IMG/VR virus record: IMGVR_UViG_2645728091_000018
From: a virus
Lineage: Duplodnaviria; Heunggongvirae; Uroviricota; Caudoviricetes
DNA: 7,448 bases
Direction: 5' to 3' (one strand)
Both the position numbers and the translations under genes were made by a program. The notes beneath the pieces were generated by a model that was given only the letters and a program-made list of their open reading frames with translations, did no database searches and had not been told where the DNA came from. This document shows positions 1,339 to 3,412 of this stretch, in pieces (the first letter of the stretch is position 1; each line of letters opens with the position of its first letter).

Positions 1339-1917
1339 TCATTCAATCGTCAGAACAATGCGGCCGATGATTTTTATATCGTCAATACCGCAGTCAAAAG
1401 CCATACCTACGCCGCTTACTCTAACCTTTCCCACAGGGATGCGTGTTAGTGTTCTAACGCTGGTTTTACCTTCAACTTCGACAAGCCAAACATCGTCATA
1501 AACTTCAGTAAAGTGTTGATCAACAATGTATTGCATTGTGTTATCAATCACACAGATAGGATTCTGCGGTAAAGGTTTGCCAGGTAAAAAAGTAACCTTA
1601 TCAAGCATTAGGAAACCAGACTCATAAAGTTTTCCGTCCACAATCTTCTTGCGTGGCAGTTTCATGATGTCTAATTCGTCATCGTTAAACTTTCTACCTT
1701 GTCCAGTCGCAAGCCATTCCAGAGTAGCTCCTGTTTCAGCCATACATCTAACAACGATATCAGCTGGAAAAAAATCCCTCTTATACCGGTTAGCCAGACT
1801 GCTGCTTGCTATATCAAGATGCTCAGCTAGGGCTAGTTTTGTGTTGAATCCATACGCTTGGATAACTCTATCTAGTACCTCAGATCCGCCCTGGGAAAAC
1901 TCAATTTGTAGGTTCAC
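1339..1917 (-). CDS. cI: CI-type immunity repressor (186 CI-like; N-terminal HTH, C-terminal oligomerisation domain)
   Basis: 192-aa ORF immediately upstream of int with a 1-nt gap. N-terminus VLDRVIQAYGF...LAEHLDIASSSLANRYKR resembles the 186 CI HTH region as I remember it. GTG start at 1915..1917 with AGGT about 9 nt upstream. Confidence 0.8.
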   Translation of the reverse strand: MNLQIEFSQGGSEVLDRVIQAYGFNTKLALAEHLDIASSSLANRYKRDFFPADIVVRCMAETGATLEWLATGQGRKFNDDELDIMKLPRKKIVDGKLYESGFLMLDKVTFLPGKPLPQNPICVIDNTMQYIVDQHFTEVYDDVWLVEVEGKTSVRTLTRIPVGKVRVSGVGMAFDCGIDDIKIIGRIVLTIE

Positions 1918-2036
1918 GAAAGTATTACCTTGAAATATTGCGCAAAGTGAGTTTAAACTCCGCTTTGTAGGTTTAAGTGAATATTGACAGTTACAGCCCT
2001 GTATTGCCGTACAGGTTAACTTATGGAGTTTGCCTC
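1918..2036. promoter_or_regulatory. Lysis-lysogeny switch region (expected convergent pR/pL promoters and operators)
   Basis: Intergenic region between divergently oriented cI and apl. Contains TTGACA at 1984..1989 and an operator-like palindrome CCTGTA-N6-TACAGG (1998..2015) with an extra TACAG at 1992..1996. I could not pair a convincing -10 with any -35, so promoter positions are not called. Confidence 0.5.
1999..2014. promoter_or_regulatory. Palindromic operator candidate CTGTATTGCCGTACAG (fits LexA core CTGT-N8-ACAG; may instead be a CI/Apl operator)
   Basis: Read directly: CTGT at 1999..2002, ACAG at 2011..2014. Flanking AT/GT partly match the SOS-box consensus, but the GC-rich centre is atypical. 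Confidence 0.3.
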
Positions 2037-2258
2037 ATGCGTCCGAACATTACAATCATCATCCCTGAGCCATACCTGCCTTTAGACGAGTATTGCCGTC
2101 GTACTGGTACCAACAAAGAAACTGCTAGGAACCTGATCGAATACGGAAAATTACCAATTAAGCCGAAGGGTAAGCAGAAGAAAGGCCTGGTAGAAGTCAA
2201 CATGGCCGCGCTCACCATTCAGGCTTTAAGCGAATGTGACATTTCGCTTAACGCGTAA
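2037..2258 (+). CDS. apl: Apl/Cox-like excisionase and switch regulator (small HTH protein)
   Basis: First gene transcribed away from cI, as in 186 (apl) and P2 (cox). ATG at 2037 with GGAG 8 nt upstream; the ORF-track start at 1977 is a non-ATG extension. 73 aa; basic segment ETARNLIEYGKLPIKPKGKQKKG resembles Xis/AlpA-type DNA-binding proteins. Confidence 0.7.
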   Translation: MRPNITIIIPEPYLPLDEYCRRTGTNKETARNLIEYGKLPIKPKGKQKKGLVEVNMAALTIQALSECDISLNA

Positions 2259-2288: not shown

Positions 2289-2792
2289 ATGTTTGATTAC
2301 CAGACCTCTAAACATGCGCACTTTGATGCGGCTTGCCGAGCATTTGCAATTGAGCACAATCTGGAAGATGTGGCCGCTGCCGTTGGTATGAGGCCGCAGA
2401 TCCTGCGCAACAAACTGAACCCAGCGCAACCGCACCGCCTGACCTGTGATGAGCTTTTGGCTATCACGGATTACACAGAAGATGCGCGTTTACTTGATGG
2501 GATGTTAGGTCAGATTAACTGCCTTCCATCCGTGCCGGTAAACAATGCTACTGAAGCCAACATGCAACTGTGTGCACTTAGCGCCACTGCATGTGTGGGC
2601 GCGATTGCTGGGGAAGCCGTATCAACTGGTCATATGACCGCAGCCCGCCGTACTCAAATTCTGGATCGCGCCCGCGATGCAATCCGTAGCTTATCCGTGC
2701 TGGCTTATACAGTTGAAAGCCGTATTCACTCTGCGCCGGTTCTGGCTGCTGCGGTGGATCTGGTCACAACCAACGCTACCGGCCTGATGTGA
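2289..2792 (+). CDS. cII: CII-like lysogeny-establishment regulator (186 CII family)
   Basis: 167 aa; N-terminus MFDYQTSKHAHFDAACRAF...LRNKLNPAQPH closely resembles 186 CII as I remember it. GGGAGAGG RBS 8 nt upstream; position after apl matches 186 gene order. Confidence 0.85.
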   Translation: MFDYQTSKHAHFDAACRAFAIEHNLEDVAAAVGMRPQILRNKLNPAQPHRLTCDELLAITDYTEDARLLDGMLGQINCLPSVPVNNATEANMQLCALSATACVGAIAGEAVSTGHMTAARRTQILDRARDAIRSLSVLAYTVESRIHSAPVLAAAVDLVTTNATGLM

Positions 2793-2801
2793 GGGAACAC
2801 C

Positions 2802-2975
2802 ATGAAAGCGTTTGTCACTTACCTGAAAAAAGAATCACCAGCCATGCAGTTGCCGAGTGGTTCAACGGGCTGGATAGAACTGCCGAACGGTCAGCGCTGG
2901 AACCCTGGCCACATGTACAAATTCAATGGCCAGCAGCCGCGCCGCCCGTGGTGGTGTCGTCTGATGGGGTTATAG
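2802..2975 (+). CDS. Small hypothetical protein (57 aa), not in the ORF track; occupies the 186 fil-like position
   Basis: ATG at 2802 with GAGGGA RBS 5 nt upstream, overlapping the cII stop. Translation MKAFVTYLKKESPAMQLPSGSTGWIELPNGQRWNPGHMYKFNGQQPRRPWWCRLMGL, stop TAG 2973..2975. Codon usage is host-typical, whereas the overlapping track frame (2789..2983) has rare AGG/AGA/ATA codons and a GTG start with no SD. Confidence 0.5.
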   Translation: MKAFVTYLKKESPAMQLPSGSTGWIELPNGQRWNPGHMYKFNGQQPRRPWWCRLMGL

Positions 2976-2983
2976 GGGGCGTT

Positions 2984-3412
2984 ATGGCGATTAGCCAGGA
3001 ACAGCAAAAGCGCGGGCTGGAGCATTTAAAACAGATCCGCCGCAAATACTTCAGCGAAAGCAGTGAGGCCGCTGAATGGTGGGACAACTTAACACCAGAG
3101 TGGCGGGGTGTAGTGCTTCATGCTGCTGCGGTTACATCTGGTACTGGGGCATTTAAAGCCCACTTAAGCAAGTGCTGCTGGCGGGAGCTTTATGAACGCC
3201 TGGGCTATCGGGACATGATTCAACTGCGCCAGGGCATTTCACGGGCGCGGTTAACGTTTGAAGGTTTCGGCAGTTTACGTGACAGCGATTTTTCAAAGCG
3301 CACCGCGAACCGCCCGATCAAAAAGGCACATCCAATTTATAGCAGTAGCGGGGTGCAGATGGTGATCGCGCCTCATATCGTCCATAAGTTCCAGCAACAG
3401 GGGAATCACTAA
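2984..3412 (+). CDS. Hypothetical phage early protein (142 aa)
   Basis: ATG at 2984 (MAISQEQQKRGLEHL...) with a GGGGG run just upstream; same frame as the distal part of the track ORF 2789..3412. Stop TAA overlaps the next start (TAATG). No recognisable catalytic motif. Confidence 0.6.
   Translation: MAISQEQQKRGLEHLKQIRRKYFSESSEAAEWWDNLTPEWRGVVLHAAAVTSGTGAFKAHLSKCCWRELYERLGYRDMIQLRQGISRARLTFEGFGSLRDSDFSKRTANRPIKKAHPIYSSSGVQMVIAPHIVHKFQQQGNH

Follow-up and report, generated by a model that had tools for sequence, protein, structure and literature searches.

A short palindrome just upstream of the apl-like gene in the phage sequence IMGVR_UViG_2645728091_000018 (IMG/VR; Caudoviricetes) belongs to a hairpin that is kept by compensatory mutation in hundreds of related prophages. 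The palindrome, CTGTATTGCCGTACAG, is located at exactly 1999-2014 of the 7,448 nucleotides that were analyzed (hereafter the window) and matches the LexA core CTGT-N8-ACAG. An initial annotation had noticed this match and proposed a LexA operator that couples the switch between the repressor gene cI and apl directly to DNA damage. The sequence is indeed there, and it is the sole match in the window, but our findings argue against a direct LexA input. The palindrome is probably a stem-loop that is selected for its structure and that sits on the promoter-proximal member of a set of Apl binding sites (boxes), next to the lysogenic promoter pL and within the interval between pL and the lytic promoter pR, with SOS signals reaching the switch indirectly.

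A hairpin maintained by compensatory mutation

Homologues of the Apl-like protein were collected with their flanking DNA from 25 species genomes of Enterobacterales, from IMG/VR contigs retrieved with four queries, and from metagenome contigs, giving a total of 413 loci. Nearly all of these carry a dyad at the same distance from the apl ATG, with arms that differ from one locus to another. In the window the full dyad is one base longer on each side than the LexA-like core, and reads CCTGTA-TTGCCG-TACAGG at 1998-2015, with arms at 1998-2003 and 2010-2015 and a loop at 2004-2009. The corresponding element of the relatives is a stem of 5-7 base pairs closed by the six-nucleotide loop TTG(C/G/A)C(G). 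Besides CCTGTA/TACAGG, the arms take forms such as CCGATA/TATCGG, GTGGATA/TATCCAC, TGAACT/AGTTCA, TGAGCG/CGCTCA, TTGAATG/CATTCAA, GCCTATA/TATAGGC and CCGTGTA/TACACGG. The initial annotation had suggested that conservation of the CTGT and ACAG arms be checked in related prophages, and we find that they covary freely and are mostly absent.

Pairing is retained through this variation. Among the 91 distinct 20-nucleotide cores present in the 413 loci, 83 form at least four of the five Watson-Crick core pairs and 72 are perfect, and 22 different five-base-pair stems are represented. The loop sequence TTG(C/G/A)C is kept in 111 of 141 distinct leaders. When pairs were counted on 114 distinct 26-mers from an alignment that took no account of structure, the paired cells made up 86.7%, compared to 59.8% after shuffling (none of 500 shuffles reached the observed value) and 19-44% when partners were slid. 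The covariation score is 0.728 versus 0.27, and all seven pairs have changed on both sides. Likewise, RNAalifold applied to a MAFFT alignment of 38 diverse 65-nucleotide leaders predicts this hairpin only, with compensatory changes in all seven pairs.

The arms do not track the DNA-binding proteins of the switch. Loci with the CCTGTA/TACAGG arms encode CI N-terminal domains with at least 95% identity in 13 cases, 85-95% in 4, 70-85% in 37 and less than 70% in 26. Conversely, relatives that share the pR and operator pattern of the window (repeats of TTTGTAGGTT) carry CCGATA/TATCGG arms. Also, at least eight different stems are found upstream of genes for Apl proteins that are 93-100% identical to that of the window. 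The arms are thus the recognition sequence of neither CI nor Apl.

The A of the apl start codon is at 2037, rather than 2038, and the palindrome ends 22 nucleotides upstream of it. The palindrome does not overlap the predicted lytic promoter. It corresponds to about +32 to +49 of the predicted pR transcript, overlapping neither pR hexamer, and the predicted pL RNA, which runs the other way, reaches it about 5 nucleotides after its start (about +5 to +22 of that RNA). Because the dyad falls where the two predicted transcripts overlap, both convergent leaders should contain the hairpin. In the plus-strand (pR/apl) leader its loop reads UUGCCG and it stands 10 nucleotides before the GGAG sequence, while in the pL/cI RNA its complement begins about 5 nucleotides from the predicted 5′ end. 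An Rfam scan of positions 1850-2150 returned no meaningful match.

Several other roles for RNA structure in this region were considered and set aside. Folding the apl leader as a single sequence gave an alternative structure with the 3′ arm paired to the region of the Shine-Dalgarno sequence and AUG. It was set aside as a conserved switch, since the 3′ arm is variable and the ribosome-binding region is not, and RNAalifold does not recover it. A kissing contact between the loop CGGCAA of the pL RNA and the apl spacer UUUGCC shows no covariation, as families with a TTGGC loop have the spacer TTGCA. The hairpin is not followed by a U-run on either strand, as would be needed for an intrinsic terminator. 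Finally, the G-10/Y-1/G+1 motif of a hairpin-dependent pause over pL fits the window and does not fit its relatives.

Candidate Apl operators between predicted face-to-face promoters

The loop and the inner part of the 5′ arm make up the last of about three direct repeats that are phased by 10 base pairs and share the word (A/G)TATTG(C/A)C. In the window this pL-proximal box is GTATTGCC (2001-2008, plus strand), a candidate operator (O3) for Apl as a Cox-like recombination directionality factor (RDF). Upstream boxes in the same phase and on the same strand span 1981-1998, where ATATTGAC (1981-1988) is followed by the degenerate copy TTACAGCC (1991-1998). Clearer triplets are present in some relatives, for example ACATTGCCC ATTATTGCCC TGTATTGCCG in locus L071 and ACATTGACAC ATATTGCCCG ATATTGACCT in locus L013. 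The string TATTGMC occurs seven times in the window versus 2.0 expected. More distant relatives have no hairpin and keep three phased repeats, such as AGTATTGAGT three times.

A second triple array with 10-base-pair phase lies in the attL arm at 267-296 on the minus strand, directly after the stop codon of the integrase gene int (AAATACTGCC GAATACTCAC AGATATTAAC), and is presumed to be the att-side array of Apl operators. The equivalent arrays behind int are again clearer in other loci, reading AATTATTGCCC TATATTGCCT in L078, GTTTATTGCCC TATATTGCCT TATATTAACT in L028, and AAATACTGCC GATTATTGCC GATTATTTGCC in L108. The copies on the att side have no dyad, so that the dyad seems tied to the site that is transcribed.

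One further match was examined as a possible box. A second exact copy of GTATTGCCGT is located at 2090-2099, inside apl and 89 base pairs downstream of the palindrome center. It spans the conserved apl codons E-Y-C-R, so that coding can explain it, and an isolated box of this kind would not be expected to bind Apl.

Phage 186 provides the closest precedent for these arrays. Its Apl protein has seven operators between pR and pL and five at attP, spaced 10-11 base pairs apart, of which at least three adjacent ones are needed, and arrays for RDFs are expected between face-to-face lytic and lysogenic promoters that are 40-60 base pairs apart (PMC7498355). The window has the same layout, with predicted transcription starts at about 1966 and about 2020, at least three adjacent repeats (at 1981, 1991 in degenerate form, and 2001), another array of the same word beside int, and a small predicted helix-turn-helix RDF gene as the first of the lytic operon. 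More generally, 186 Apl operators and P2-like Cox boxes are short direct repeats one helical turn apart, at least three of them adjacent, that lie between face-to-face promoters about 50-60 base pairs apart and next to int at att, and the protein that binds them is encoded by the first lytic-operon gene. Because the phased repeats between the promoters and at att match the sites of 186- and P2-like RDFs, the center of the palindrome is a putative Apl operator. The systems also differ, in that no sequence similarity is detectable between the window protein (family PHROG 575) and 186 Apl, the boxes of the window follow (A/G)TATTG(C/A)C rather than a TGGCAA-like word, about three boxes are present rather than seven, and the last of them is embedded in a covarying hairpin. 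Of the two fallback readings in the initial annotation, a CI operator or an Apl operator, only the second therefore agrees with the (G)TATTGCC center and its phased array, the arms being independent of the CI DNA-binding domain.

The placement of the promoters is predicted from their geometry and conservation. The candidate pR (1930-1959, plus strand) consists of TTGAAA (1930-1935), an 18-nucleotide spacer and TAAACT (1954-1959), with a start near 1966; it is the only sigma-70-like match in 1800-2150, and its offset from the cI start codon is that of the annotated 186 pR. The candidate pL (2027-2055, minus strand) has a -35 hexamer TTGTAA (2055 to 2050), a 17-nucleotide spacer and a -10 hexamer CAAACT (2032 to 2027), with a start near 2020. 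Its -35 hexamer falls inside apl codons 5-7 and its -10 hexamer adjoins the apl Shine-Dalgarno sequence. The same geometry is found at 186 pL, where the -10 hexamer lies 5-10 base pairs before the apl ATG and the -35 hexamer 13-18 base pairs after it.

Conservation within apl follows these hexamers. Positions +13 to +20 of the gene (ATTACAAT) are invariant in all 169 distinct sequences compared. This holds even for +15 and +18, which are third codon positions, while the other third codon positions vary freely. The six positions from -10 to -5 before the gene (AGTTTG) are nearly invariant in the same set. This pattern is consistent with pL hexamers embedded in the start region of apl. A mutation of the 186 pL -10 hexamer also damages the apl ribosome-binding site (PMC6593788), and the predicted pL -10 hexamer of the window likewise overlaps the apl ribosome-binding region. 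The predicted starts give a pR-pL overlap of about 54 base pairs with the dyad inside it, and the corresponding interval in 186 is the one occupied by the seven Apl operators (annotation; PMC7498355).

Taken together, we propose that Apl would read the conserved center (A/G)TATTG(C/A)C at the DNA level, binding cooperatively to about three phased boxes here and to the second array beside int at att. Like 186 Apl, it would thereby repress both promoters and direct excision. The variable flanks would pair in the transcripts, yielding a hairpin of 5-7 base pairs with the loop UUGCCG in the apl leader and its complement in the pL (cI-int) RNA. The hairpin most likely acts in cis on the overlapping leaders, perhaps through the stability of the mRNA, ribosome access to apl, or pairing between sense and antisense RNAs. 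The CTGT-N8-ACAG match would then be incidental to one stem sequence among many equivalent ones, and SOS induction would enter through a LexA-repressed, Tum-like antirepressor that acts on CI.

Weighing the evidence and the route of SOS induction

Some observations weigh against this proposal. The shuffling control ignores phylogeny, such that kinship can inflate the paired fraction, and the slid control and the number of different stems answer this only in part. The existence of relatives without the hairpin means that it is not essential to the switch. Binding by Apl, the two transcription starts and the Tum-like function are each argued from analogy and conservation. As to the choice of strand, single plus-strand wobbles outnumber A.C mismatches by 8 to 2 distinct cores (about 6 versus 2 independent events), a difference that is not significant and that had stood at 7 versus 0 with 141 leaders before 150 more loci were added. 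Moreover, folding of single sequences places the hairpin in both the minimum-energy and the centroid structure of the pL-strand RNA, and in neither for the plus-strand leader. Because the strand evidence is mixed, we limit the claim to a structural element that acts in cis within the overlapping leaders, the pR/apl leader being slightly favored as the selected strand. Lastly, the LexA score presented below leaves room for weak LexA binding in vitro at the palindrome, and one validated binder, ACCTGTAGGATCGTACAGGT (index 12.6), has the same outer bases.

A dyad that serves some other dimeric protein at the DNA level, or that extrudes as a cruciform, with no role in RNA, would be equally palindromic on both strands, as is observed, and would produce no significant wobble asymmetry. 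We nevertheless regard this as unlikely. A sequence-specific protein would not tolerate 22 stems around an invariant asymmetric center, a stem of six base pairs with a six-nucleotide loop would make a poor cruciform, and the boxes on the att side have no dyad.

Marginally less probable still is a weak LexA operator confined to the sub-lineage with CCTGTA arms, which would block pR transcription as a roadblock or repress pL and so give direct SOS input in addition to Tum. The palindrome resembles the E. coli LexA operator (consensus TACTG(TA)5CAGTA) in its perfect CTGT-N8-ACAG core and its 16-base-pair dyad. For scoring, as the initial annotation had suggested, we recovered the heterology-index matrix by regression on the 140 pairs of sequence and index in Table S1 of PMC12527982 (fit error 2e-5); the recovered matrix reproduces the values for recA (4.31) and for the 186 p95 box (1.49). 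The candidate CCCTGTATTGCCGTACAGGT has an index of 14.26. Among validated sites the binders range from 1.5 to 12.6 and the strongest non-binder is at 15.5, and the PSOSP thresholds are 13.2 and 14.8 (PMC12527982). The candidate falls between binders and non-binders, and the matrix alone therefore leaves it in a grey zone.

Comparison across the relatives is more informative. No CTG-N10-CAG sequence is present in 115 of the 141 distinct orthologous leaders, and the 26 that have one score 11.9-15.9. The motif arises only in the CCTGTA arm class, some variants of which reach 11.9-12.9. Among the arm pairs sampled, CCTGTA/TACAGG occurs most often, but this frequency probably comes from the heavy sampling of E. 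coli-type prophages. The hosts of the loci are all Enterobacterales, which to our knowledge share one LexA motif. Because the arms vary even so, selection appears to act on pairing and on the center rather than on a LexA site. The part that is conserved is the GC-rich center, which is unlike that of LexA operators, as the initial annotation had itself remarked.

The position of the site is also unfavorable for LexA. It lies outside the core promoter, well into the predicted pR transcript, and repression of pL by LexA would raise CI upon SOS induction, which is the wrong direction. In addition, the same phages already carry a strong SOS box at a Tum-like gene. The apparently intact prophage of E. 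coli AHB29 (L002), which is 97.7% identical to the window, has the SOS box TACTGTATGTATATCCAGTT at 19636-19655 with an index of 2.93. An open reading frame for 68 residues (19678-19884) lies 42 nucleotides further on, directly after the replication gene, which is the position of tum in 186. Within the prophage portion of L002, this SOS box and the palindrome are the only sites with an index of 17 or lower. The window itself stops within repA, and the position of the Tum-like gene is beyond its end. However, the exact SOS box and reading frame also occur in IMG/VR contigs, and L352, L354, L355 and L362 hold the box, the reading frame and the palindrome together.

This arrangement is similar to the p95-tum module of 186, since in the relatives the SOS box overlaps the promoter of the small gene that follows the replication gene. 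Over 38 residues, the 68-residue product is 32% identical to the N-terminal part of 186 Tum (pairwise E = 1e-5), and it belongs to PHROG 698, which has no assigned function. It differs from the 146-residue Tum in that it has no DinI-like C-terminal domain. By analogy, the reading frame likely encodes a minimal LexA-controlled antirepressor. Because near-identical prophages carry a canonical SOS box before a Tum-like gene, the SOS input to this switch is most likely indirect, through a LexA-repressed antirepressor downstream of the replication gene, and the direct coupling put forward in the initial annotation is not borne out.

CI of phage 186 acts at pL, and by analogy with the weak CI sites there, the palindrome could be a weak CI site near pL that serves in negative autoregulation. 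We judge this to be slightly more doubtful again than a LexA operator. It would account for the dyad symmetry, and the 3′ arm with its flank, TACAGGTTAAC, loosely resembles the TTTGTAGGTT(T/C)A repeats around pR. The candidate CI operator region, however, occupies 1905-1985 (plus strand), where the direct repeat TTTGTAGGTT(C/T)A occurs at 1905 and 1964; this region stops short of the palindrome, and its position matches that of the annotated CI sites at 186 pR. The inverted pair AAACTCA/TGAGTTT is found near pR at 1897 and 1948, and GGAGTTT is found at 2025; with the direct repeat, these are candidate CI operators of this immunity type. In the comparison of arms described above, the same arms accompany divergent CI DNA-binding domains and the same pR and operator type accompanies different arms. 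The palindrome is unchanged, and homology resumes at 1997, in E. coli prophages whose cI is 76% identical and whose pR region is unrelated. The conserved center is, moreover, asymmetric.

That the palindrome is a chance feature with no function can be dismissed almost entirely, for although a 6+6 dyad in a 120-base-pair spacer is not rare in a single sequence, this idea is contradicted by pairing that has been kept via many compensatory changes across genera. The statistics of the window itself are modest: CTGT-N8-ACAG occurs once versus 0.07 expected, at least one occurrence is seen in 13 of 200 dinucleotide shuffles, and about 8% of mononucleotide shuffles of the window hold a CTG-N10-CAG site with an equal or better LexA matrix score. 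A 6+6 palindrome is therefore unremarkable in one sequence alone, and its significance rests on conservation.

Genetic setting and relation to phage 186

The window is the attL end of an integrated prophage and is equal to IMG/VR contig 2648501498_000023. It begins with the host gene mntS (1-129), which is followed on the minus strand by int (297-1346) and by a cI repressor gene of 186 type (1339-1917). The 192-residue CI product has the Pfam domains Phage_CI_repr and Phage_CI_C and is 41% identical to 186 CI. On the plus strand, the apl-like gene (2037-2258, 73 residues) opens the lytic operon, and cII (2289-2792) comes next. Downstream of cII are fil and small open reading frames, an exonuclease gene, a DUF3850 gene, dam, and the start of the replication gene.

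By its sequence family, the 73-residue protein is a predicted Cox-like excisionase and repressor. It matches PHROG 575 (‘Cox-like excisionase and repressor’) with E = 1.5e-27, and a weak, sub-threshold HTH_17 match covers residues 16-47, the same residues as in 186 Apl. BLAST found no similarity between it and 186 Apl, and searches of PDB sequences and Pfam gave nothing above threshold.

Three additional features of these prophages were noted. A mosaic junction is located at 1997, the left edge of the palindrome. Of the 30 E. coli genomes with matches to 1339-2300, 24 are similar to the window only to the right of this point and have a different cI/pR module (cI 76% identical); identities are 94.7-97.0% among the 13 such matches listed. 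Immunity modules are exchanged at the operator array. The mechanically listed open reading frame at 2789-3412 (207 residues) is probably not a gene, and in RefSeq relatives this interval holds a 57-residue Fil-family gene (2802-2975 of the window) and a separate hypothetical gene. Lastly, E. coli strain 573 (L001) carries the same prophage as a remnant in which the replication gene is truncated and fused to tail genes.

A related structure may exist in the 186 family itself. Switches of 186 type have an inverted repeat in the pR-pL overlap, GCAATTGAT-N25-ATCAATTGC, with nine-base-pair arms that enclose the central Apl operators (L004:1570-1612 in phage 186, and L268-L347). Arm variants among the 186 relatives include GCAATTAAT/ATTAATTGC, CATTGAT/ATCAATG, ATGTTGGC/GCCAACAT and CAGTGAG/CTCACTG. 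In 19 leaders, 81.9% of cells are paired compared to 69.5% when shuffled and at most 50% when slid, which is moderate support, and the covariation score is 0.424 versus 0.198 for a structure derived from one of the same 19 leaders. Plus-strand G.U pairs exceed A.C mismatches by 17 to 5 cells. RNAalifold did not predict this long-range stem on the 186-type leaders. The 186-family stem is thus a lead and not a result. No description of it was found in the literature searched, and the 186 papers searched contained no relevant mention of a hairpin, stem-loop or inverted repeat.

Some precedents exist for structured leaders in such positions. Stem-loops in leaders stabilize bacterial mRNAs, as in the 5′ untranslated region of ompA, and IS10 produces the stem-loop antisense pair RNA-IN and RNA-OUT from convergent promoters. 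The window hairpin is similarly near the predicted 5′ end of the pL RNA and just upstream of a ribosome-binding site, and its overlapping convergent transcripts are complementary, as those of IS10 are. It differs from these examples in that no Rfam family corresponds to it and in that its loop is probably constrained by protein-DNA binding and not by a partner RNA.

If true, direct LexA control would set this switch clearly apart from the known 186 circuit. The evidence speaks against such control, and this phage family most likely uses the familiar route from LexA through a Tum-like antirepressor to CI. A perfect CTGT-N8-ACAG sequence can evidently arise as one of many equivalent stems, which calls for caution in predicting SOS control of prophages from motifs alone. 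For a widespread and unstudied family of Cox/Apl-type excisionases, the analysis provides a candidate operator word and both of its arrays, along with the predicted locations of pR and pL. It also reveals a hairpin that compensatory changes have kept where pR and pL overlap, in a type of switch that serves as a model for transcriptional interference. Phage 186 apparently has such a hairpin as well, and we found no description of it in the literature searched. We raise as a tentative possibility that a covarying stem enclosing one or more Apl operators in the pR-pL overlap is an undescribed cis-acting RNA element of 186-type switches that is common to both families. Such an element could tune transcriptional interference, sense/antisense pairing, or the stability and translation of the apl and cI leaders.

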